Assembly: GCF_056746865.1 (NCBI RefSeq)
Contig: NZ_CM163382.1
Direction: 5' to 3' (one strand)
DNA length: 64,000 nucleotides
Every line of letters begins with the position of its first letter. Within the stretch, counting starts at the first letter, position 1. A program made the position numbers and the translations under genes. Positions 1,675 through 45,718 of this stretch are shown in pieces. The notes below the pieces were generated by a model, which did not search any database, was not told the DNA's origin, and saw only the letters and a list, made by a program, of their open reading frames with translations.

Positions 1675-3633
1675 ATGTCCTTAAAAGGTCTGCGCTTTAC
1701 GCTGGAGATTGACGGCCAGGAGCCGGACACCTTTGCAGTGGTGCATTTCAGGTTAATCCAGAACCAGTCTTATCCGTTTGTGATGAGTGTGGATGTTGCC
1801 AGCGACTCTTTTATGCAGACGGCGGAGATGCTGCTGGAGAAGAAGGCGACGCTGACCATCTGGCAGGGCGTCATCCCGCTGCGTTATGTCACCGGCGTGG
1901 TGGCGGGTTTTGGCATGCAGGAGAACAATGGCTGGCAGATGCGTTATCACCTGCGTATTGAGCCGCCGTTATGGCGGTGCGGGCTGCGGCAGAACTTCCG
2001 TATCTTCCAGCAGCAGGATATCCGGACGATATCGGCCACGTTACTGAACGAGAACGGCGTCACGGAGTGGACACCGCTGTTTTATGAGGACCATCCGGCG
2101 CGGGAGTTCTGTGTCCAGTACGGGGAAAGCGACCTGGCGTTTCTGGCGCGGTTGTGGGCGGAGGAGGGAATTTTCTTCTTTGAGCGGTTTGCGGCGGACA
2201 GTCCGGAGCAGAAGCTGACGCTGTGCGACGATGTGGCGGGGCTGTCACAGGCGGGAGAGCTTCCGTTTAACCCGGACACATCGGCAGGAGCGGAGACAGA
2301 GTGTGTCAGTATGTTCCGTTATGAGGCGTATGTCCGCCCGTCGTCGGTGCAGAGCCAGGATTACACGTTTAAGGTGCCGGACTGGCCGGGGATGTATGAG
2401 CAGCAGGGTGAGAACCTGAACGGACAGCTGGAGCAGTATGAGATATTTGATTATCCGGGAAGGTTCAAGGATGAACAGCACGGCAAGGATTTCACGCTGT
2501 ACCAGATGGAGAGCCTGCGCAGTGATGCGGAAAAGGCCACAGGGCAGAGTAATTCACCGAAGCTGTGGCCGGGAACGCGGTTTACGCTGACGGGGCATCC
2601 GCAGAAGATGCTGAACCGTGAATGGCAGGTGGTACAGAGTATTCTGTCAGGGGACCAGCCGCAGGCGCTGCACGGCAGCCAGGGGAGAGGAACCACGCTG
2701 GGAAATCAGTTAGAGGTGATACCGGCGGACCGGACGTGGCGTCCACGGCTGCAAAGCAAACCGAAGGTGGACGGGCCACAGAGCGCCATTGTCACCGGTC
2801 CTGCGGGAGAGGAAATCTTCTGCGACGAACACGGACGTGTGCGAGTGCAGTTTCACTGGGACAGGTATAACCCGGCAACGGAGGCGAGTTCATGCTGGGT
2901 GAGGGTGTCGCAGGCGTGGGCGGGGCCGGGATTTGGTAACCTGGCGATACCGCGCATCGGCCAGGAAGTGATTGTAGACTTCCTGAACGGCGACCCGGAC
3001 CAGCCGATAATCATGGGGCGGACGTACCATGAGGACAACCGTTCGCCGGGGAGTCTGCCGGGGACGAAGACGCAGATGACGATACGGTCGAAGACCTATA
3101 AAGGAAGCGGCTTTAATGAACTGCGGTTCGAGGACGCGACGGACAAGGAAGAAATTTACCTGCACGCACAGAAAAATATGCAAGTCGTTGTGCTGAACAG
3201 CAAGGATAAGCGGGTCAACTATGACCGGACGGTCAGCATCGGGCATGATGAATCCCTGGTGGTGGCAAATGACCGGAAAGTGACGGTTGAAGGTAAACAG
3301 GACCATAAAACCACCAAAGACCATGTCAGCCTGACAGAGGGCAATCAGGGGCTGGAGGTGAAAGGCGATCTGGCACAGAAAATAAGCGGCGCGCTGGGTA
3401 TCAGCGTACAGGGCGATATTGTTTTACAGAGCGACAGCAAAATCAGTCTGCGGGTGGGCGGTTCATTTGTGGTGATCCATTCCGGCGGCGTGGATATTAA
3501 GGGCGCGAAAATCAATCTTAACGGCGGAGGCAGTCCGGGAGACGTGATCCTGCCGATGCGCCCGGTGATCCTGAAAGCCGCAGCCGGAAGCGGGACAATG
3601 TTTGTGGCGCACTGCCCGAAGGAGGATAAGTGA
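1675..3633 (+). CDS. vgrG: T6SS spike protein VgrG (TssI)
   Basis: 652-aa ORF with the VgrG N-terminal region (LRFTLEIDGQEPDTFAVVHF...) and gp27/gp5-like content; directly downstream of hcp. Confidence 0.9.
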   Translation: MSLKGLRFTLEIDGQEPDTFAVVHFRLIQNQSYPFVMSVDVASDSFMQTAEMLLEKKATLTIWQGVIPLRYVTGVVAGFGMQENNGWQMRYHLRIEPPLWRCGLRQNFRIFQQQDIRTISATLLNENGVTEWTPLFYEDHPAREFCVQYGESDLAFLARLWAEEGIFFFERFAADSPEQKLTLCDDVAGLSQAGELPFNPDTSAGAETECVSMFRYEAYVRPSSVQSQDYTFKVPDWPGMYEQQGENLNGQLEQYEIFDYPGRFKDEQHGKDFTLYQMESLRSDAEKATGQSNSPKLWPGTRFTLTGHPQKMLNREWQVVQSILSGDQPQALHGSQGRGTTLGNQLEVIPADRTWRPRLQSKPKVDGPQSAIVTGPAGEEIFCDEHGRVRVQFHWDRYNPATEASSCWVRVSQAWAGPGFGNLAIPRIGQEVIVDFLNGDPDQPIIMGRTYHEDNRSPGSLPGTKTQMTIRSKTYKGSGFNELRFEDATDKEEIYLHAQKNMQVVVLNSKDKRVNYDRTVSIGHDESLVVANDRKVTVEGKQDHKTTKDHVSLTEGNQGLEVKGDLAQKISGALGISVQGDIVLQSDSKISLRVGGSFVVIHSGGVDIKGAKINLNGGGSPGDVILPMRPVILKAAAGSGTMFVAHCPKEDK

Positions 3634-4472
3634 TGGAAACGGCACCCGTGCAGTACGCCATTGTGGATGGCGCTGTGGAGGAAGGATTGCTGGATTTTCT
3701 GAACGAGGTGAATCCCCCGCACTGTTGTCTGTATGCAGAACCCATACAACTGGATCTGGTCGCGCTAGCCCCCTATCTCGTGGAAGTCGTTCCGGAGGTT
3801 GAAGCATGGCTGAGTGTTAAGGCGTCGCCATGGGGAATATATCTGACTTCTGAGTCATCCATGCGTGAGCTACAGCAACACTTCAGACGTTATCTGTGGG
3901 TTAGGATCCCCGAACAGGAGAAACCTGTTCTCATGCGATTTTATGATCCCCGGAATATATGGGTATTAGTGGAAGTTCTGACCCCCCGCCAGCGTCTTTC
4001 TTTTATCAGTCCCGTCAGACAGCTAAGTACCCGTTATGGTGAAGAATGTCGTGAGGATAATTTTTCTTCCGTCCGTCCCGCAGAAACTATGAATATAAGG
4101 GCAGAACGGCCATCACAACTGACGCTGAGTTACAGACAATATAGCCAACTGGAACGAAAGGCACGGGATAATTATCTTGATATATTATCTGCATTTATCG
4201 AAGAAAATGTAGATAAAAACGGATGGGATGATTCATCAAAAGCTGAATCATCCCGAATTCTGGCAGAAGATTATTTCTCTTTTTGCCAGTCATTAAATAT
4301 AGCAGATGATCGTTCCGTCAGAACAATGACGCTTATATTACTGAAAAAAAATATAATCGATCTCAGATATATTCCGGATGACTGGTATGAACAACTCAGC
4401 AATCAGTCATACCCGGGACATATTCGGGTACATGAACTTGCACAACAGGAACTGGGATTTATCCCACAATAA
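3630..4472 (+). CDS. DUF4123-family T6SS effector adaptor (Tap/Tec-like)
   Basis: 280-aa ORF overlapping the vgrG stop (ATGA); N-terminal YAIVDGA motif typical of DUF4123 adaptors. Confidence 0.7.
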   Translation: MMETAPVQYAIVDGAVEEGLLDFLNEVNPPHCCLYAEPIQLDLVALAPYLVEVVPEVEAWLSVKASPWGIYLTSESSMRELQQHFRRYLWVRIPEQEKPVLMRFYDPRNIWVLVEVLTPRQRLSFISPVRQLSTRYGEECREDNFSSVRPAETMNIRAERPSQLTLSYRQYSQLERKARDNYLDILSAFIEENVDKNGWDDSSKAESSRILAEDYFSFCQSLNIADDRSVRTMTLILLKKNIIDLRYIPDDWYEQLSNQSYPGHIRVHELAQQELGFIPQ

Positions 4473-4493: not shown

Positions 4494-6065
4494 ATGACAT
4501 CTCCATCTTCGACAGCCGGAAAGCCCTGTGTGGAATGCGGCATTCCTGATCCATGTATTTTTGATGTTATTAGTGATTTTCCAGAGGCCGGCGAGAAACA
4601 TTTCTGGTCAAAAGAAGGAGTGGCGCGTTTTAAGCTACTGGATGATGGTTCCGGATGTGATGGTATAATTACCATTACCTACCAGTGCGATAAAAGTGGA
4701 ACACATGAGGCATGGTTAGAGGAAGAATCAGAAAATAATCATAAGATACTGCAACCTTTCGGAATACCTAATAAGGTCACTTTGGATGATAACTTGTCTG
4801 AAGGTGAAATAATTGCTATGGGTACATTTCGAGTACCATGGGATTATTTGGGGGCAATATCCTCTCCACTTAAGAATCATTATGAACCTGCCCATTATTC
4901 AGTCAGAATTGACAGTTGTTACGAATGTGGCAATTATGTTGAAATTGATGTTTATCCTACAGTGGAAATTAGGTTTACTACAGGGTTCAGCTATGAGATT
5001 TCGTCATCAAAACAGACGAGAACAGTAAAAGAGCGGCGTGACGAAAGAATAAAAGCCAGGGACGCAATGGAGAACACCAAGCCCAGGGATAAAAATAAAC
5101 TCCGTAGCGGCTGGACAAATACCACTGCTGAGTTTGAGTGGATAAACAAGACTTCCCTGACTGTCGATTTTGGCGTAAAAATAGCTAATGTTGAACACAC
5201 AAGTGAATATGAAAAAGAGATAAAAAAACTTCGACAAACAAAGCAACTGGAACAGATAGGAAGAATTGACTCTCTGGTCAAGAATGTCAATAAATATTTT
5301 GCGCCAGATCCTGACAATAATAATGGTACGCGCAAATATGCATTGTTCAGTGCAAAAATAGAACCCGTTAAACTGGGTATATCGTATGCCTATCAATATA
5401 CCGATATCCAGGATGGCCCCTGTCATTTTTATGGTTTGTTTGGTGCCCCATTTTTTGAAGCGTCGTTCAGATTCGATATTATTTCATTTATATGTGCATA
5501 TTGTAAAGTCGAGTCATTGGTCAACAGATGTCGTGAATATCTCCGTAAAAACGGAGCCAGTGTTGAATGCTATATCGAGATTTCAGCGGAGATTAATCTT
5601 GATCTTGGCGCAGTATACGCTGAAAAGGATAAAAAATGGGAGTTTAATGTAAAGGAAAGTAACATCAAGCTCGGTTTAAAAGGTGTGGTGAGTGCGACGT
5701 TTGAGGCGAATGTTTTTGTTGTACAACTGACCGCCGAAGCGACTGCCTCTATAGAAGCGAAAGCTGGATTTGGATTTGATTCACATGATGACGGACTGGA
5801 CCTAGCATTATTTCATGACGGCATTAAAGGGAAGTTTGAATTTAAGATTGATGTGTCTCATGGTGAAGTTGATGAAAAAGGAAAGGGGAAGGAAAAGAGC
5901 GAAAAACCTGAGAAGAAAGATACCGTTGAGTGGCAGTTATGTGATCCTATGGAGGTAAAGGATTCACCATTACGGGTTAATTTATACGGTAAAGAACGCA
6001 CTGTGGAGAAAAAAGTAACACCGCCGAAGCCAGTGACAACGTGGACGATAGGTATGGATTATTAA
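4494..6065 (+). CDS. Candidate T6SS cargo effector, activity unknown
   Basis: 523-aa AT-rich ORF immediately after the DUF4123 adaptor. I recognise no catalytic motif; Lys/Glu-rich C-terminus. Confidence 0.45.
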   Translation: MTSPSSTAGKPCVECGIPDPCIFDVISDFPEAGEKHFWSKEGVARFKLLDDGSGCDGIITITYQCDKSGTHEAWLEEESENNHKILQPFGIPNKVTLDDNLSEGEIIAMGTFRVPWDYLGAISSPLKNHYEPAHYSVRIDSCYECGNYVEIDVYPTVEIRFTTGFSYEISSSKQTRTVKERRDERIKARDAMENTKPRDKNKLRSGWTNTTAEFEWINKTSLTVDFGVKIANVEHTSEYEKEIKKLRQTKQLEQIGRIDSLVKNVNKYFAPDPDNNNGTRKYALFSAKIEPVKLGISYAYQYTDIQDGPCHFYGLFGAPFFEASFRFDIISFICAYCKVESLVNRCREYLRKNGASVECYIEISAEINLDLGAVYAEKDKKWEFNVKESNIKLGLKGVVSATFEANVFVVQLTAEATASIEAKAGFGFDSHDDGLDLALFHDGIKGKFEFKIDVSHGEVDEKGKGKEKSEKPEKKDTVEWQLCDPMEVKDSPLRVNLYGKERTVEKKVTPPKPVTTWTIGMDY

Positions 6066-6131
6066 GTGATATTACAGAAATTAAAAGTGAACAGTATAAT
6101 GAGTATTTTCCCCTTTTGAGAGAGAATAATT

Positions 6132-7142
6132 ATGAAGGCAAAACATTTAATATCGGTTATTTTACTGTCAGGAGTTGTTATGGGAACTGGATTTTGCTCT
6201 AACGATAACCAGCAAAAAATTCGCAGTAAGTTTAATATTGAAGAGTCATATTGTGCCATTAAGACTAATGGCGTCCTCGGGTTCAGTAACCGAAGAAGTG
6301 CCTGGCGGGCAAATGGTGATTCAACCGGGGCCATATCCAGCACCAATGCCATGATGCTGATGGCGAATGGAGAAAATGAAATCAGTCTGGAGATTGGGGC
6401 ATTAGGATGGTTTTCTGACAAGCCTGCCAGTATGGAAGAACGGGGGCGTTTTTTTCCAAAAGCAGGATGCAGCCTGGATTTGGTTCGTTTTATTAAACAG
6501 GAGGAAACGCTGCTTTCTTCAATAAAAGTGACCATCAACCAGCAGGGCATACCTGAAGCCCGGCCAGACAGCGTGCATCCCGTTATCCGGAAAGAGATTT
6601 TGGCTGAGCAGGCGGAGCCAGGATTTATTGATCCAGATTATTTTGATGAAACCTATTTCCCGAAAGGGATGAAGGTGTATCAGTTCACTCAAAAAGTTAC
6701 CGTGACAGGGCTTCCTGAATGGGCCTGGACGCGGGCAACCCCCTATACCGGAAGCGACGAGCAGTTACGGAAGTTAAAAGCCGCCTATACCGAAATGGCA
6801 AGCATCATCAGTAGCCGGGACAGGGCACGTCTGAAAGCTTATAACAAAGAGGCGCTGAAGGCATGGTCAGCCACAACCGGTGACTCTGAGGATGACATAT
6901 TACTCTCACTCTTCTCAAAAGATAATGTGGAGGGAGGGAAAGCCAGAATGCAGCCCATCAGGTGGGACGATTATGCCGTCCGGGTTATGAATGGTGGACG
7001 TATGGTGCAGCTATATAATAAATCGAAACCAATATATTCCCCACTGACTTACCGTTTTACAGATGAAAGTGGTGAAGAGCGTATGGGGTATTACGCTCCG
7101 GTATTTTCGCTGATTGATGGTCAGTTTATCCCTGTTACTTGA
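6132..7142 (+). CDS. Candidate cognate immunity protein, secreted or lipoprotein
   Basis: 336-aa ORF with N-terminal signal peptide MKAKHLISVILLSGVVMGTGFC (lipobox-like Cys); position directly after the candidate effector. Confidence 0.4.
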   Translation: MKAKHLISVILLSGVVMGTGFCSNDNQQKIRSKFNIEESYCAIKTNGVLGFSNRRSAWRANGDSTGAISSTNAMMLMANGENEISLEIGALGWFSDKPASMEERGRFFPKAGCSLDLVRFIKQEETLLSSIKVTINQQGIPEARPDSVHPVIRKEILAEQAEPGFIDPDYFDETYFPKGMKVYQFTQKVTVTGLPEWAWTRATPYTGSDEQLRKLKAAYTEMASIISSRDRARLKAYNKEALKAWSATTGDSEDDILLSLFSKDNVEGGKARMQPIRWDDYAVRVMNGGRMVQLYNKSKPIYSPLTYRFTDESGEERMGYYAPVFSLIDGQFIPVT

Positions 7143-7216: not shown

Positions 7217-8379
7217 AATTTTTTGTCGCTGATATTCCAGACAGGAAAACAATATGCCTTTAGCTGCCAGATTAAACGACAAAGGTACCGGCACAGGGAA
7301 AGATCACGTAACGCTGCTTTTTTGTACTAAATAATTCGCATTTTATGTTTAAAATTTGAGATATTCCTCATTACCTGAGGCTGTTTTTTATTACTTATAC
7401 ATGATCAAATACTCCTTACATAATTAAGGGGAACAAAATGGAACTTAAAAATTGATGGAACATATTTCTGTTATTCCCGATTACAGACAAGCCTGGAAAG
7501 TGGAACATAAATTGTCGGATATTCTACTGTTGACTATTTGTGCCGTTATTTCGGGTGCAGAAGGTTGGGAAGATATAGAGGATTTTGGGGAAACACATCT
7601 CGATTTTTTAAAACAATACGGTGATTTTGAAAATGGTATTCCTGTTCACGATACCATCGCCAGAGTTGTATCCTGTATCAGTCCTGCAAAATTTCACGAG
7701 TGCTTTATTAACTGGATGCGAGATTGCCATACTTCAGATGATAAAGACGTCATCGCAATTGATGGAAAAACGCTCCGGCACTCTTATGACAAGAGTCGCC
7801 GCAGGGGAGCGATTCATGTCATTAGTGCGTTCTCAACAATGCACAGCCTGGTCATCGGACAGATCAAGACGGATGAGAAAACCAATGAGATTACAGCTAT
7901 CCCAGAACTTCTTAACATGCTGGATATTAAAGGAAAAATCATCACAACTGATGCGATGGGTTGCCAGAAAGATATTGCAGAGAAGATACAAAAACAGGGC
8001 GGTGATTATTTATTCGCTGTAAAAGGAAATCAGGGGCGGCTTAATAAAGCCTTTGAGGAAAAATTCCCACTGAAAGAATTAAATAATCCAGAGCATGACA
8101 GTTACGCAATGAGTGAAAAGAGTCACGGCAGAGAAGAAATCCGTCTTCATATTGTTTGCGATGTCCCTGATGAACTTATTGATTTCACGTTTGAATGGAA
8201 AGGACTGAAGAAATTATGCGTGGCAGTCTCCTTTCGGTCCATAATAGCAGAACAAAAGAAAGAGCCAGAAATGACGGTCAGATATTATATCAGTTCTGCT
8301 GATTTAACCGCAGAGAAGTTCGCCACAGCAATCCGAAACCACTGGCACGTGGAGAATAAGCTGCACTGGCGTCTGGACG

Positions 8380-10270
8380 GTGTGCCGCAGGAACACAAGA
8401 TAGCTGCATAAGGATACGCAGTTAGCTTTTGTATAAGCTCATAAAGAGATGGTGGAAGGCCCACCGGGATCGGCTGTCGGAAGCAGATTCCAAACCACTT
8501 CATGCTGCTGTGGTAAAGAGCCATGGTAGTGAGCGATGAAGTAAAGCGTGAGTGAAAACTCAGCAGGTAAGATACTCATGAGACGAGTGAACCCGAACCC
8601 ATGTTGACGCGTCGTAAACCAGAGACTGACATCAAAACCGAAGGGGCGTCCAGCCTTCGGGATAAGTCTGCGAGTGAATTCCGAATGCTGCGCAGACGGT
8701 GTCCGGCGTAAAGTGGGCGTGACGGAGTATCAGGCTCTTCCTGGGAACTGCGGGAACCTGTCGTTGTGATGATAAGGGAGAAATGCAAGTCACTGAATTG
8801 GCGAGCATGAAAGTACCGATGCACAGCACAGGGACGGAGCCGTTCGTAGTAGTGATGAAGCTTCTGTAATGGAGGTGGAGCGAAGGGGCGGCATCAGACA
8901 GTCTTTGGACAGTGTTCAACTGAACATGTTCAGGAGGAGACAATGACAAAGACAAAAGCGTTTAACATTGATAAGTCACTGGTGGTCAGCGCGTACAGGC
9001 GAGTGAAGACCAGTGCAGGCGCGGCGGGAATTGATAAGCAATCGCTGGCGGACTTTGATAAACGGTTAGTTGATAATCTGTACAAAATCTGGAACCGACT
9101 TTCTTCAGGAAGTTATTTCCCACCGGCAGTGAAAGCGGTGGCAATTCCGAAGAAATTGGGTGGAGAGAGAATTCTGGGTATCCCGACAGTCAGCGATCGT
9201 ATCGCGCAGACGGTGGTAAAACTGGCCTTTGAGCCACAGGTTGAGCCACATTTTCTGGCAGACTCTTACGGCTACAGACCGAATAAATCGGCACTGGATG
9301 CTATAGGGGTAACGCGTAAGCGTTGCTGGTATTACGACTGGGTACTGGAATTTGACATCAAAGGGCTGTTCGATAACATCCCGCACGAACTGATAATGAA
9401 AGCCGTGGACAAACACAATCCGGCCCGGTGGGTAAAATTGTATATACAGCGGTGGCTGACAGCGCCGATGGTGATGTCAGACGGAGAAGTCAGAGCACGA
9501 ACAATGGGAACGCCGCAGGGAGGTGTCATAAGTCCGTTGCTGGCAAACCTGTTCATGCATTATGTGTTTGATAAATGGCTGGCAAAATATTATCCGAAAG
9601 TGCCGTGGTATCGATATGCTGATGATGGCATTTTGCATTGTCACAGCGAAGCAGAAGCGACTGAAATGCGAGAAGTATTACGCAAAAGATTTAGCGAATG
9701 CGGACTGGAAATGCATCCGGAGAAAACGCGAGTTATCTACTGCAAAGATGGAAGCCGGAAGGGTGATTATGAACATACCATGTTCGACTTTCTGGGGTAC
9801 ACATTCAGGCGACGCGTAGTAAAGAACGTTAAGCGAAACAGTCTGTTTGTAAGTTTTACCCCCGCAGCGAGCAAATCAGCGCTAAAGGCAATGCGTCGGG
9901 AAATCAAAGCGACAGGGATAAGGAAAAGAGTGGATTTAAGCATTGAGCAGATAGCGAAATGGATAAATCCAAAACTGAATGGCTGGATAAATTATTACGG
10001 GCGATATACCTGTTCGGAATTATACAGCGTGTTCAGATATATCAATAAAGCACTGGTGAGGTGGGGGCGTAAGAAATATAAAATGCTCAGCCGATACAAG
10101 ACAAGAGCCTCAAAATTTCTGGAAGAAATGGCGAAGCGAAGTCCACAGTTGTTTGCCCACTGGCGTCTGAAGATGAGAGGCGGACTTGTTTGATGGGAGC
10201 GGTATGAGCCGAGAGGTTCACGTACCGTTCTGCGAGAGGCTGCGGGGGAGGTTCCTGCGGCCTACTCACC
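8380..10270 (+). mobile_element. Group II intron (bacterial, with RT/maturase ORF)
   Basis: Boundaries from aligning interrupted copy 1 to uninterrupted copy 2: shared …cgtctggacg | intron starts GTGTGCCG … ends …cctactcacc | tggtaatgaatg resumes. Domain V-like GAGCCG…CGTACCGTTC lies just after the RT stop. Confidence 0.7.
8943..10193 (+). CDS. Group II intron-encoded reverse transcriptase/maturase
   Basis: 416-aa ORF with RT motifs (…RYADDG… YADD box) and a maturase X-domain motif (NGWINYYG). Confidence 0.85.
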
Positions 10271-10493
10271 TGGTAATGAATGAAGACGACTGCAAAATAA
10301 GAAGAGGAAATGCAGCAGAATTATTTTCAGGGATACGGCACATCGCTATTAATATTTTGACGAATGATAAGGTATTCAAGGCAGGGTTAAGACGTAAGAT
10401 GCGAAAAGCAGCCATGGACAGAAACTATCTGGCGTCAGTCCTTGCGGGGTGCGGGCTTTCGTAATCTTTCCCTGGATGTGAAAAGCAGCTGCG

Positions 10494-11779
10494 GACAGGG
10501 AAAGATCATCAGAAGTACACTTTTTGTACTAAACAATTCGCATTTTATGTTTAAAAATTGAGATATTCCTCATTACCTGAAGCTGTTTTTTATTGCTTAT
10601 ACATGATCAAATACTCCTTACATAATTAAGGAGAACAAAATGGAACTTAAAAAATTGATGGAGCATATTTCTATTATCCCCGATTACAGACAAGCCTGGA
10701 AAGTGGAACATAAATTATCGGATATTCTACTGTTGACTATTTGTGCCGTTATTTCTGGTGCAGAAGGTTGGGAAGATATAGAGGATTTTGGGGAAACACA
10801 TCTCGATTTTTTGAAGCAATATGGTGATTTTGATAATGGTATTCCTGTTCACGATACCATTGCCAGAGTTGTATCCTGTATCAGTCCTGCAAAATTTCAC
10901 GAGTGCTTTATTAACTGGATGCGTGACTGCCATTCTTCAGATGATAAAGACGTCATTGCAATTGATGGAAAAACGCTCCGACACTCTTATGACAAGAGTC
11001 GCCGCAGGGGAGCGATTCATGTCATTAGTGCGTTCTCAACAATGCACAGCCTGGTCATCGGACAGATCAGGACGGATGAGAAATCTAATGAGATTACAGC
11101 TATCCCTGAACTTATTAACATGCTGGATATTAAAGGAAAAATCATCACAACTGATGCGATGGGTTGCCAGAAAGATATTGCAGAGAAGATACAAAAACAG
11201 GGAGGTGATTATTTATTCGCTGTAAAAGGAAACCAGGGGCGGCTAAATAAAGCCTTCGAGGAAAAATTTCTGCTGAAAGAATTAAATAATCCAGAGCATG
11301 ACAGTTACGCAATTAGTGAAAAGAGTCACGGCAGAGAAGAAATCCGTCTTCACATTGTTTGCGATGTCCCTGATGAACTTATTGATTTCACGTTTGAATG
11401 GAAAGGTCTGAAGAAATTATGCGTGGCAGTCTCCTTTCGGTCAATAATAGCAGAACAAAAGAAAGAGCCCGAAATGACGGTCAGATATTATATCAGTTCT
11501 GCTGATTTAACCGCAGAGAAGTTCGCCACAGCAATCCGAAACCACTGGCACGTGGAGAATAAGCTGCACTGGCGTCTGGACGTGGTAATGAATGAAGACG
11601 ACTGCAAAATAAGAAGAGGAAACGCAGCAGAATTATTTTCAGGGATACGGCACATTGCTATTAATATTTTGACGAATGATAAGGTATTCAAGGCAGGGTT
11701 AAGACGTAAGATGCGAAAAGCAGCCATGGACAGAAACTACCTGGCGTCAGTCCTTGCGGGGAGCGGGCTTTCGTAATCT
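10494..11779 (+). mobile_element. H-repeat (ISAs1-family) element copy 2, intact
   Basis: Left IR acagggaaagatca and right IR tcttgccctg; direct orientation, about 20 bp after copy 1. Confidence 0.75.
10640..11776 (+). CDS. H-repeat-associated ISAs1-family transposase
   Basis: 378-aa [35 protein letters not shown]… uninterrupted. Confidence 0.85.
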
Positions 11780-11895
11780 TGCCCTGGTACAGTAAACAAA
11801 CGAAAGTTGTTATTTCAATGGTCAGGGCAAGAGCATGAAGTGTTTACTACACACTATGCTCTTGTCCTGGAGTCAGGTCTTGTTTGGAGGGATAA

Positions 11896-12994: not shown

Positions 12995-13215
12995 TGCAAA
13001 TAATATCGTAATTTTGAAAATGGTAATTCTGTTCACGGCACCATAATTAGAGTTATGTCTTGTATCCGTTCAGTATAATTTCACGAATGCTTTATTAACT
13101 GGATGCGAGATTGCCATTCATCAAATGATAAAGACGTCATCGCAATTGATGGAAAAGCGCTTCCACACTCCTATGATAAAAGTGGTCGCAGGGGAGCGGG
13201 CTTTCGTAGTCTTAG
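12995..13215 (+). pseudogene. Internally deleted H-repeat transposase remnant (position equivalent to K-12 yafF)
   Basis: Matches the ENGIPVH…[10 protein letters not shown]…SRRRGA segment, then jumps to the element 3' end (…ggagcgggctttcgtagtct…); junction at a short ggggagcg microhomology. Confidence 0.6.
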
Positions 13216-13249: not shown

Positions 13250-14020
13250 TCACCACAACCTAAACTCATCCGCATCCCGCCATGCCGGAAACTTTTCTCT
13301 ATATTCCCGCAATGCCGCCATCGACAGCTCCGCATCAATGCGCGTTGCCTGATGCGCGTCGGCGGTGGCGATAATCTCGCCCTGTGGATTAATCACCCGG
13401 CTGTCACCGCGATAATGGCAGCCGTTGCCATCGCTGCCGACGCGATTGCATCCCGCCACATACGCTTGATTCTCAATCGCGCGGGCCGTCAGCAATGCCT
13501 GCCAGTGCAGAGAGCGCGGAGCCGGCCAGTTGGCGACGTACAGGGCGAGGTCGTAATCGTTGAGATTGCGCGACCACACAGGAAAACGTAAGTCGTAGCA
13601 CACCAGCGGCAAAATACGCCAGCCGCGCCATTCCACAATCACTCGCGCATTGCCCGCTTTATAATGCAGATGCTCATCTGCCATGCGGAACAGATGACGC
13701 TTATCATAAAAATGTACCGTGCCGCCTGGCTCAACCAGCAAAAAGCGGTTAACCGAACCAGACTCCGTTTGTAATGCAACACTGCCTGCAATCAGCGCAT
13801 TGCACTGCTGCGCTTTGGCTGTCATCCAGTTCACTACGTCATCTTGTGCTAGCGACGAAGCTGCCGCTTCCATGGCAAAGCCGCTGGTAAACATCTCCGG
13901 TAGAACGATCACATCGCGTCCGGTAATATCTTCCAGTTGACGATCAAAATGACGCAGGTTGGCAGGACCATCCATCCACACCAGTGGTTGCTGCAAAAGC
14001 GTAATCTTCAAACCAGGCAC
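13250..14020 (-). CDS. yafV: Carbon–nitrogen hydrolase family protein (omega-amidase) YafV
   Basis: ORF 13250..14029; probable GTG start giving [22 protein letters not shown]…, 256 aa, as in K-12 YafV. Confidence 0.85.
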
Positions 14021-14173
14021 GGTGTACAACTCCTTTATGCGAAGGGTTTTATAACTTTAACACCTTATCAGGCAGTTGCCTTAGCGCAGAATAAATTGAT
14101 AACAAATGCTGATATTGGAAATATCTGATTTGCAAATTATCGTGTTATCGCCAGGCTTTAGGAGGTTAATAAC

Positions 14174-17957: not shown

Positions 17958-18094
<137 letters not shown>

Positions 18095-19927: not shown

Positions 19928-20686
19928 ATGTCCTTCATGTCTTCGTTCTTTCACGGCAGATTTCTGCATCCAGGCGTGTTTTCGTTATGCGTTTTGCTCC
20001 CTTTACTCGCCAGCGCCACCACATCACATATCTCTTTCAGCTACGCCGCCCGCCAGCGGATGCAAAACCGTGCGCGTTTATTAAAACAGTACCAAACCCA
20101 TCTGAAAAAACAGGCCAGCTATATTGTGGAAGGCAATGCCGAAAGCAGAAAGGCGCTGCGCCAGCACAACCGCGAACAGATAAAACAGCATCCAGAATGG
20201 TTTCCTGCGCCGCTCAAGGCGAGTGACAGACGCTGGCAGGCGCTGGCGGAGAACAACCATTTCTTAAGCAGCGACCATCTGCACAACATCACCGAAGTGG
20301 CGATTCACCGCCTGGAGCAGCAGCTTGGTAAGCCTTACGTCTGGGGCGGCACGCGGCCCGATCAAGGCTTCGACTGTAGCGGGTTGGTTTTTTATGCCTA
20401 CAACAAGATCCTCGAGGCGAAGCTCCCGCGCACGGCCAATGAGATGTATCACTACCATCGGGCAACGATTGTGGCGAATAACGACCTGCGCCGGGGAGAT
20501 TTGCTGTTTTTCCATATTCACAGCCGTGAGATTGCCGATCATATGGGCGTGTATCTGGGAGACGGTCAGTTTATCGAGTCGCCGCGCACCGGGGAAACCA
20601 TTCGGGTAAGTCGGTTAGCTGAACCTTTCTGGCAGGATCATTTTTTAGGCGCGCGCAGGATTTTGACGGAAGAGACGATTTTGTAG
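19928..20686 (+). CDS. yafL: NlpC/P60-family peptidoglycan endopeptidase YafL
   Basis: 252-aa ORF with signal peptide and NlpC/P60 signature (…GFDCSGLVFYAY…H…). Confidence 0.8.
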   Translation: MSFMSSFFHGRFLHPGVFSLCVLLPLLASATTSHISFSYAARQRMQNRARLLKQYQTHLKKQASYIVEGNAESRKALRQHNREQIKQHPEWFPAPLKASDRRWQALAENNHFLSSDHLHNITEVAIHRLEQQLGKPYVWGGTRPDQGFDCSGLVFYAYNKILEAKLPRTANEMYHYHRATIVANNDLRRGDLLFFHIHSREIADHMGVYLGDGQFIESPRTGETIRVSRLAEPFWQDHFLGARRILTEETIL

Positions 20687-20768
20687 GACGGATAAGGCGT
20701 TCACGCCGCATCCGGCAATAGTGCACCGATGCCTGATGCGACGCTGCCGCGTCTTATCATGCCTACGA
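20683..20768. repeat. REP element, overlaps the yafL stop codon
   Basis: gtaggacggataaggcgttcacgccgcatccggca… unit. Confidence 0.65.
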
Positions 20769-21363: not shown

Positions 21364-21510
21364 TGCGCGGATGCCTGATGCGACGCAGGCGCGTCTTATC
21401 ATGCCTACAAACTTGTGCCGGATCGGTGGGCCGGATAAGGCGTTCACACCGCATCCGGCAATTGTGCACCGGTGCCTGATGCGACGCTGGCGCGTCTTAT
21501 CATGCCTACA
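21364..21510. repeat. REP/BIME array, left part (interrupted by IS)
   Basis: REP units ending …cgtcttatcatgcctaca immediately before the IS left inverted repeat. Confidence 0.7.

Positions 21511-23050
<1,540 letters not shown>

Positions 23051-45579: not shown

Positions 45580-45718
<139 letters not shown>

Follow-up and report, generated by a model that had tools for sequence, protein, structure and literature searches.

A probable E.c.I2 group II intron of bacterial class D in an ISEc1 transposase gene, beside an unoccupied homing site

Two H-repeat elements lie in tandem on the + strand of the 64,000-nt stretch of DNA analysed here (the window), within a type VI secretion/Rhs-type island adjoining yafV. 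One of them is interrupted in its transposase gene, which raises the question of what the interrupting DNA is and whether it may still splice and move. A sequence-only reading had proposed a mobile element nested in a mobile element, i.e., a 1891-bp group II intron with exact boundaries and a 416-aa reverse transcriptase (RT)/maturase in the ISAs1-family transposase gene of copy 1, next to a copy 2 that encodes an uninterrupted transposase of 378 aa, and all of these points are borne out below. Copy 1 (7294-10474, + strand; delimited by alignment with copy 2 and by the limits of ISEc1 matches of ~1290 bp elsewhere) measures 1290 bp once the intron is subtracted and is bounded by terminal inverted repeats read directly as CAGGGAAAGATCA (left) and TAATCTTTCCCTG (right). 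Copy 2 (10496-11786, + strand) is 1291 bp long, is annotated at identical loci as 'ISAs1-like element ISEc1 family transposase' and contains an intact transposase gene at 10640-11776 (NF033564, 414 bits vs the cut-off of 70). The inverted repeats of the host element, CAGGGAAAGAT(C/T)A by direct reading, are those of the ISAs1 family and ISEc1, and ISEc1 is also the name given by the NCBI pipeline (PGAP).

The flanking exons, the alignment of which to copy 2 had been named as the refuting test, do align. Copy 1 parallels copy 2 up to ...CTGCACTGGCGTCTGGACG, with 8379 as the last base, homology picks up again at TGGTAATGAATG (10271), and the two stretches are contiguous in copy 2 at 11582|11583, which is the empty site. 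Since the bases flanking either side differ, only one placement of the junction is possible, and the insert occupies exactly 8380-10270, i.e., 1891 nt relative to copy 2. It begins with GTGTGCCG (RNA 5' end GUGUG) and lies in the sense orientation relative to the transposase gene. The 5' exon (7455-8379, + strand) runs from Met7 to the first base of Val315 of the transposase, and the 3' exon (10271-10464, + strand) runs from codon 315 to the stop codon TAA at 10462-10464; without splicing, the open reading frame (ORF) of copy 1 continues into the intron and stops at 8409-8411.

Two Rfam families match the insert above their gathering scores: group-II-D1D4-2 (RF01999) at 8451-8568 (105.5 bits, E = 1e-20) and Intron_gpII (RF00029) at 10195-10270 (58.3 bits vs the gathering score of 40), the latter ending at the 3' junction. 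Minimum-energy folding of the single sequence, with the ORF removed, gave the EBS1 hairpin and domain V correctly and mispaired domain VI with the 5' end. Comparative folding with RNAalifold on six relatives, together with pair counts, was used in its place, and all six domains of a group II intron fold, as the sequence-only reading had proposed to check. Compensatory changes are found in 79 of the 141 pairs of domains I-IV in the alignment of six relatives, where 96.8% of the cells are paired vs about 40% with the partners slid, and none of 500 shuffles reached as high a value. Domain I (8385-8753; also matched by RF01999) is closed by a helix of 8385-8390 with 8748-8753, and is followed by domain II (8754-8835), domain III (8839-8892) and domain IV (8893-10194), all on the + strand. 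Domain IV is supported by the single-sequence fold and by RNAalifold helix 20; its basal stem, read from the sequence, pairs AUCAGAC (8893-8899) with GUUUGAU (10188-10194), and a hairpin at about 8901-8953 spans the ribosome-binding site and the start codon of the intron-encoded protein.

Domain V (10197-10230, + strand) is GAGCGGUAUGAGCCGAGAGGUUCACGUACCGUUC, a 34-nt element with the catalytic AGC triad at 10198-10200 and the 2-nt bulge of group II introns, and the 5' GUGUG conforms to the GUGYG of the same introns. The sequence-only reading had correctly placed domain V between the RT stop codon and the 3' junction; the string quoted for it, GAGCCG...CGTACCGTTC, covers only the inner part, in a slightly wrong register. 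Both domain V and domain VI (10234-10267, + strand) are conserved with compensatory pairs among the six relatives. In domain VI, A10264 is unpaired in the consensus of the six relatives and is the predicted branch point, with 6 nt remaining to the 3' splice site. The intron ends in CUACUCACC, i.e., in ...CACC and not in the usual ...AY, and CACY is common to all six relatives. A 3' end moved to 10269, which would yield the canonical ...AC, was rejected: the empty site allows no shift, a pyrimidine follows CUCAC in six of six relatives although their exons are unrelated, and it is the next base, after this pyrimidine, that covaries with EBS3.

The exon-binding sites also agree with these boundaries. 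EBS1 (CGUCCAG, 8647-8653, + strand) is located in the 9-nt loop of a hairpin at 8638-8660 and forms seven of seven Watson-Crick pairs with IBS1 (CUGGACG, exon positions -7 to -1, 8373-8379, + strand). This loop tracks the 5' exon in RmInt1, in a Marinobacter intron and in variants of the E. coli intron E.c.I9, and six of seven positions pair in a Methylobacter intron. IBS2 is tentatively assigned to CUGG (-14 to -11, 8366-8369, + strand), which is complementary to the CCAG at 8619-8622 of the EBS2 loop CCAGAG (8619-8624, + strand). A plain complementarity search had offered other EBS2 candidates (e.g., CAGACG at intron position 314), and comparison with relatives, in which the equivalent loop tracks the exon (CCAUAC/GUAUGG in Marinobacter, AUGAA/UUCAU in RmInt1), settled the choice. 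EBS3 is A332 (8711, + strand) in the coordination loop; it aligns with G329, the published EBS3 of RmInt1, and its predicted partner is IBS3, the U at 10271. As in IIB-type introns, the nucleotide in this column can pair with the first base of the 3' exon in six of six relatives. All three assignments correspond to those published for RmInt1, i.e., IBS1 at -7 to -1, IBS2 (UUCAU) and EBS3 (G329).

The protein encoded within the intron (8943-10193, + strand) is 416 aa long and consists of an RT domain with the YADD motif and a maturase X domain (RVT_1, E = 2.7e-39; GIIM, E = 7e-16), the motif NGWINYYG included, and it scores 412 bits against TIGR04416 of NCBIfam (cut-off 300). Pfam gave no match to an HNH or other DNA-binding/endonuclease (En) domain in the 416 aa, and the protein stops 28 aa past GIIM; an En domain is absent from all class C, D, E and F introns (PMC4424553). 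The RmInt1 protein is 57% identical over the full length. On this identity, on the nucleotide alignment and on the shared helices, both the protein and the ribozyme, which is of IIB type, group with bacterial class D.

RmInt1 of Sinorhizobium meliloti, a class D intron of IIB3 type with its homing site in ISRm2011-2, is the closest studied relative. Both introns reside inside insertion-sequence transposase genes and encode endonuclease-less RT/maturases of about 416-419 aa; their ribozymes align over the whole length at the nucleotide level with the same helices, and they share a 7-nt IBS1, EBS3 at the homologous position of the coordination loop and an identical 3' end. They differ in the family of the host element, in their EBS/IBS sequences and in the register of IBS2, which is apparently shifted (-14 to -11 in the window intron vs -13 to -9 in RmInt1). 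RmInt1 is also highly mobile in experiments, whereas in E. coli genomes the window intron hardly moves.

We consider it very probable, on sequence and anatomy, that 8380-10270 is a full-length E.c.I2, an endonuclease-less class D intron at its cognate ISEc1 site that works in the manner of RmInt1, is inherited vertically and disrupts its host element. From this anatomy and from RmInt1 we infer how splicing and mobility would proceed. The transposase transcript would carry the intron, and the intron protein would be translated from domain IV and assist folding of the ribozyme. The exons would be held by EBS1, EBS2 and EBS3 through CUGGACG, CUGG and U+1, respectively, and the bulged A10264 would attack the 5' splice site, releasing a protein-bound lariat. 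The lariat-protein particle could then reverse-splice into an empty ISEc1 site, where cDNA synthesis would be primed by the nascent DNA strand at the replication fork. Because the protein is without endonuclease, priming would have to come from that strand and, with RmInt1 as the closest studied relative, mobility via replication-fork priming, as described for endonuclease-less introns and RmInt1 (PMC4424553; PMC1802570), is probable. In its lineage, the intron would be passed on almost wholly by vertical inheritance at a single locus, new insertions being rare, and its main effect on the host element would be disruption of the transposase.

The sequence-only reading had further suggested that splicing might restore the transposase at the RNA level. 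Removal of the intron in silico does restore the reading frame across the exon junction 8379|10271, which becomes CTGGACG|TGGTAATG. What that reading missed is a 1-nt deletion in copy 1 within the A-run at 7447-7451 (A5; A6 in copy 2), which damages the start of the gene (7438-7457, + strand). As a result of the deletion, the frame of the original ATG at 7438 ends at the TGA at 7453-7455, and the long ORF does not begin until the ATG at 7455-7457, which overlaps this stop codon (TGATG); the start of the pseudogene annotated by PGAP is the equivalent of 7455. With the frameshift at codon 5, a product initiated at Met7 is the only one possible. RmInt1 joins only 0.07% of its exons in vivo (PMC3123198). 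The frameshift and this precedent make rescue of the transposase at the RNA level a weaker prospect than first implied.

How such an intron behaves in nature may be read from its distribution. The search for additional copies proposed by the sequence-only reading covered 5426 complete E. coli genomes and found 172 carriers, in 171 of which the best place matches the 6.3-kb arrangement of the window at >=99%. The arrangement beside yafV is the same in 166 of the 172, and the intron ORF is intact and 99.8-100% identical in all 172. A second copy is present in only two carriers, M11957 and CP141089, and its locus was mapped for M11957: it is inserted at exactly the same position of another ISEc1, which lies at a separate locus. 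From the record coordinates, assuming the standard E. coli orientation, the copy at the yafV locus would be on the lagging-strand template, the preference of RmInt1, and the second copy of M11957 apparently on that of the leading strand; a sample of two is too small to say anything about orientation.

The uniformity of the carriers lends some weight to the reading that the intron is structurally intact and a dead passenger, which neither splices nor moves and merely marks an inactivated ISEc1 of one E. coli lineage. The site in copy 2 is identical in sequence, with flanks equal to those of copy 1 from about -112 to +40, and was never filled in the loci inspected; with such a perfect target left empty 1.3 kb downstream on the same strand, the activity of the intron must be very low or absent. 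The host gene is additionally frameshifted near its start, and in one strain an IS3 element is inserted within the intron. On the other side, low site occupancy is the published norm for enterobacterial introns, whose homing sites are mostly unoccupied (PMC3522654). The ORF has remained intact across the 172 genomes, the catalytic hallmarks (GUGUG, the AGC triad, the bulged A, the perfect EBS1-IBS1 pairing and YADD) are all present, and the second copy in M11957 sits in another ISEc1, again at the cognate site. We therefore regard a dead passenger as rather unlikely.

The second copy of M11957 suggests recent retrohoming, and it is also the point at which another explanation has to be weighed, i.e., that the intron passed from one ISEc1 to another by homologous recombination or gene conversion, in which case second copies are no evidence for natural RNA-mediated mobility. 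ISEc1 copies are ~97% identical and offer long homologous exon tracts on both sides of the intron, and second copies are as rare as noted above. However, the recipient element in M11957 has kept its A6 run intact and still differs from copy 1 by SNPs of its own, on the 3' side 41 and 44 nt and on the 5' side 136 nt from the junction, so that any conversion tract would need to be confined to little more than the intron itself. Retrohoming produces just such an insertion, exact and with no co-conversion, and recombination appears improbable as the source of this copy.

Introns are named in the intron database by near-identity, above about 90-95%, to a reference sequence. The insert in the window appears to be a catalogued E. 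coli intron at a known target, already known and ordinary, and its name rests on length, locus, target and a published identity of 99%. E.c.I2-1 in strain UMN026 is a 1891-nt intron at 269264-271154 on the + strand, 99% identical to the reference and located 'in a Rhs region' (PMC3522654). E.c.I2 is assigned to bacterial class D (PMC3522654, Table S2) with the Rhs IS as its target, given as 'Rsh IS (= ISEc1-5)' (PMC3522654), and it is catalogued in the Zimmerly database (Dai and Zimmerly, 2002, as cited in PMC3522654). Strain 118UI carries a 100% identical copy of the window intron at 269263-271153 (by arithmetic), nearly the coordinates in UMN026. The window intron agrees with E.c.I2 in length (1891 nt), in class (D), in its position at ~0.27 Mb in a Rhs region and in its target, the Rhs IS/ISEc1, where it lies inside the transposase ORF, and no difference was detected in published length, class, locus or target.

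E.c.I9, the other intron that targets H-repeats, is likewise of class D with a Rhs IS target, shares the 5' GUGUGCCG and 3' CUCACY ends, and is 86% identical to the window intron over short stretches. E.c.I9 of ATCC 8739 is, however, 1887 nt long, reaches an overall identity of only about 69-75% and differs in its EBS1. Its insertion point is outside the transposase gene, 15 nt in from the left end of the H-repeat, at the inverted repeat of that end (GATCAYN|...); E.c.I9 persists mainly as fragments of roughly 100-190 nt in thousands of genomes. Because length, locus type and target of the insert fit E.c.I2, it is very improbable that the insert is E.c.I9 or a new relative. An origin of the RT gene from a retron or defence-type RT instead of an intron has a negligible chance of being correct, as the weak NCBIfam matches to Drt3a, Drt2 and retron RTs fall far below their cut-offs while the TIGR04416 score exceeds its own, the protein has a GIIM maturase domain and the flanking ribozyme domains are found by Rfam and backed by covariation.

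The relatives of the window intron invite a broader comparison. An intron on a plasmid of Methylobacter sp. YRD-M1 (NZ_CP091425.1) is 71% identical in nucleotide sequence and 69% in its protein, also of 416 aa, and is likewise inserted in codon phase 1 of an ISAs1-family transposase gene. It lies 8 codons further upstream: of a pair of similar H-W-x-[LIV]-[DE] motifs, the Methylobacter intron follows the first, HWGIE, and the window intron the second, HWRLD, and the EBS1 of the Methylobacter intron is retuned to its own site (UUCUAU with AUAGAA). The three introns use at least three target sites, i.e., the left inverted repeat and the two motifs beside the catalytic glutamate. It is conceivable that E.c.I2, E.c.I9 and the Methylobacter intron belong to a class D sub-lineage specialised on ISAs1-family elements of distant Gammaproteobacteria by retuning of EBS1/EBS2, and that the intron and the TGATG of copy 1 together form a splicing-dependent brake on ISEc1 transposition; we advance this only as a speculation of low probability.

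PGAP divides this locus into an 'ltrA' gene and a pair of pseudogenes labelled 'partial ISAs1 transposase'; for the annotation of E. coli genomes, all three are best described as one ISEc1 interrupted by E.c.I2, and the value of the finding lies mostly in this correction. As a relative of RmInt1 that is native to E. coli, E.c.I2 could be used to study endonuclease-independent retrohoming, although this is not a new idea. The locus illustrates neatly, in a natural setting, an occupied homing site next to an unoccupied one, and it fits the published picture in which group II introns of enterobacteria fill few of the sites available to them.

In the window, two H-repeat (ISEc1, ISAs1 family) elements lie head to tail (7294-10474 and 10496-11786), as read directly from the sequence and from alignment of the two copies. 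Copy 1 equals copy 2 as far as ...CTGCACTGGCGTCTGGACG (8379) and the match picks up again at TGGTAATGAATG (10271), while in copy 2, whose 378-aa protein fits the ISAs1 transposase model NF033564 (414 bits), both flanking stretches are contiguous, with the junction between 11582 and 11583. The insert in copy 1 occupies exactly 8380-10270 (1891 nt) and contains an ORF of 416 aa (8943-10193); because its terminal bases differ from the flanking bases, the junction cannot slide and the limits are exact. The alignment bears out the sequence-only reading, which had drawn the boundaries of a 1891-bp insert by comparing the two copies.

The insert is a group II intron, as that reading had proposed. Two Rfam models exceed their gathering scores: group-II-D1D4-2 with 105.5 bits (8451-8568) and, for domains V-VI, Intron_gpII with 58.3 bits (10195-10270), whose match ends on the insert's last base. 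At 412 bits, where the cut-off is 300, the ORF clears the NCBIfam equivalog model of group II RT/maturases. The solved structures closest to its product are group II intron RTs, and a domain search found RVT_1 and GIIM, no further domain behind them and no endonuclease domain. The intron was compared with five relatives: E.c.I9 (E. coli ATCC 8739), RmInt1 (Sinorhizobium meliloti GR4) and the Methylobacter, Marinobacter and Methylomagnum plasmid introns. The 5' 560 nt are alignable throughout, and RNAalifold on this alignment gave 141 pairs. By an independent count, 96.8% of cells are paired, versus ~40% with the partners slid, and 79 pairs have changes on both sides; 0 of 500 shuffles reached the observed values. 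All six domains, whose assignment had been suggested as a check, could thus be mapped with covariation: domain I at 8385-8753, II at 8754-8835, III at 8839-8892, IV at 8893-10194, V at 10197-10230 (AGC at 10198-10200) and VI at 10234-10267 (bulged A at 10264).

The intron ends in ...CUACUCACC, and this CACY ending, common to all six introns compared, departs from the textbook group II ending AY. The 3' boundary is fixed by covariation of a single unpaired domain I column (window 8711), which complements the first 3'-exon base in 6/6 introns and aligns with RmInt1 G329, the published EBS3 (PMC3123198). EBS1 (CGUCCAG, 8647-8653) lies in a 9-nt hairpin loop and forms 7/7 pairs with the last seven 5'-exon bases. 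In the equivalent loop the Marinobacter intron has UGUCCCA (exon UGGGACA), RmInt1 has UUUCGUC (exon GAUGAGA), E.c.I9 copies have CGUGAU or GAUGAU, facing the H-repeat left end in its two variants, and the Methylobacter intron has UUCUAU (exon AUAGAA; 6/7 positions paired). EBS2 (CCAG, 8619-8622) is complementary to exon CUGG at -14 to -11; in the homologous loop the Marinobacter intron has CCAUAC, opposite exon GUAUGG, and RmInt1 has AUGAA, opposite UUCAU, which is exactly the published IBS2 (PMC3123198).

The intron is not new: it is already catalogued and routinely annotated at a known target, although the observation and interpretation of the sequence-only reading were both right. E.c.I2 targets the Rhs IS (= ISEc1-5), while E.c.I9 targets another position of the same IS (Leclercq and Cordaux, 2012; PMC3522654). 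E.c.I2-1 of UMN026 is a class D intron of 1891 nt at 269264-271154 (plus strand) "in a Rhs region", 99% identical to the database reference (PMC3522654), and strain 118UI has a 100% identical copy of the window intron at 269263-271153 (coordinates by arithmetic). Agreement in length and target and these near-identical coordinates make the identification as E.c.I2 well supported, if indirect. E.c.I9 itself is clearly distinct: it is 1887 nt long and ~69-75% identical, and its insertion point is 15 nt in from the left end of the H-repeat.

The H-repeat left ends in the window look like empty E.c.I9 homing sites, at 7300-7315 in copy 1 (GATCACG/TAACGC, site between 7308 and 7309) and 10500-10515 in copy 2 (GATCATC/AGAAGT), and the EBS1 loops of E.c.I9 variants fit one or the other (CGUGAU, strain 200164; GAUGAU, ATCC 8739). 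A ~100-nt domain I fragment, 85-86% identical to intron positions 54-156 (window 8433-8535), is present in about 2000 of the 5426 E. coli genomes, BL21 and O157:H7 among them. These fragments appear to be E.c.I9 remnants, of which examples of 159-193 bp have been described (PMC3522654).

The intron splits codon Val315 behind its first base (before VVMNEDD), shortly downstream of the conserved H-x-E-N motif. The sequence-only reading had suggested that splicing could restore the transposase; this is formally correct, since in-silico removal restores an ORF differing from copy 2 by 9 residues. In copy 1 the A-run at 7447-7451 is, in addition, one A short, so that the original start now runs into TGA 7453-7455 and only a Met7-initiated product (ATG 7455) is possible. 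The resulting 5-codon mini-ORF has a TGA overlapping the next ATG (TGATG; region 7438-7457), the classic termination-reinitiation arrangement. Given this start-proximal frameshift and in vivo exon ligation of only 0.07% in RmInt1 (PMC3123198), rescue by splicing is likely marginal in practice.

The intron is present at ≥99.8% identity in 172/5426 complete E. coli genomes, strain 042 among them, in 174 places, all chromosomal, and PGAP everywhere annotates the locus as ltrA flanked by two partial ISAs1 transposase pseudogenes. Its exact protein sequence occurs in 9445 blocks of a large assembly index. All carriers but one (171/172) match the 6.3-kb arrangement at ≥99% in their best place, and 166 share the whole arrangement adjoining yafV (13250-14029, minus strand), so inheritance of the intron is essentially confined to one locus. 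Almost every genome has H-repeats (5342, with a median of 5 places). The 4.9-Mb E. coli record NZ_CP141089.1, filed among plasmids and evidently a chromosome, contains a 100% identical E.c.I2; two places match the intron query, and the second could be another copy or just a fragment. In E. coli SCU-105 (L003, NZ_CP051738.1; locus 3170-4398), an IS3-family element lies within E.c.I2, downstream of the 5' junction and ahead of the RT gene, giving three nesting levels, IS in intron in IS.

Directly adjoining yafV, a short, degenerate third H-repeat transposase fragment (13004-13198) probably marks an old island edge. Hypothetical proteins of 523 and 336 aa are encoded 5' of the H-repeats (4494-7142 and upstream), and in identical loci a DUF4123 protein and a VgrG/TssI gene precede them; the region therefore looks like type VI secretion effector/immunity cargo, and the published "Rhs region" label is loose here. 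Rfam matches outside the intron are the Hfq-binding sRNA isrC (22578-22700, minus strand, 150 bits) and six naRNA4/REP-type elements on the plus strand (17963-18040, 20686-20763, 21429-21506, 22791-22969, 45586-45662).

The search for additional copies and empty sites that had been suggested turned up both. The copy 2 homing site is identical to that of copy 1 from about -112 to +40 and is empty in every locus inspected, and E. coli M11957 carries a second intron ~340 kb away, inserted at the identical position of another ISEc1. In this recipient element the A6 run is intact and the element's own SNPs persist to within 41 nt of the intron. Retrohoming in nature is the best reading of the second copy, with short-tract recombination a conceivable alternative. 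One of the E.c.I9-like fragments lies just upstream of this H-repeat (L013, about 2258-2310). From record coordinates, the yafV-locus copy is on the lagging-strand template and the second M11957 copy apparently on the leading-strand template, two cases being too few to test a bias.

The Methylobacter sp. YRD-M1 intron (L006, plasmid NZ_CP091425.1, 1088-4099; 71% nucleotide and 69% protein identity to E.c.I2) lies in an ISAs1 transposase of divergent sequence, and its insertion point, after HWGIE (a motif resembling HWRLD), is 8 codons upstream of that of E.c.I2; related introns thus use two similar sites in one protein family. Class D introns all lack the endonuclease domain (PMC4424553), and RmInt1, whose protein is 57% identical to that of the window intron, reverse-splices into single-stranded DNA at replication forks, primed mainly by nascent lagging strands (PMC1802570). 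The window intron would most likely take an RmInt1-like route, with reverse splicing at replication forks and nascent-strand priming.
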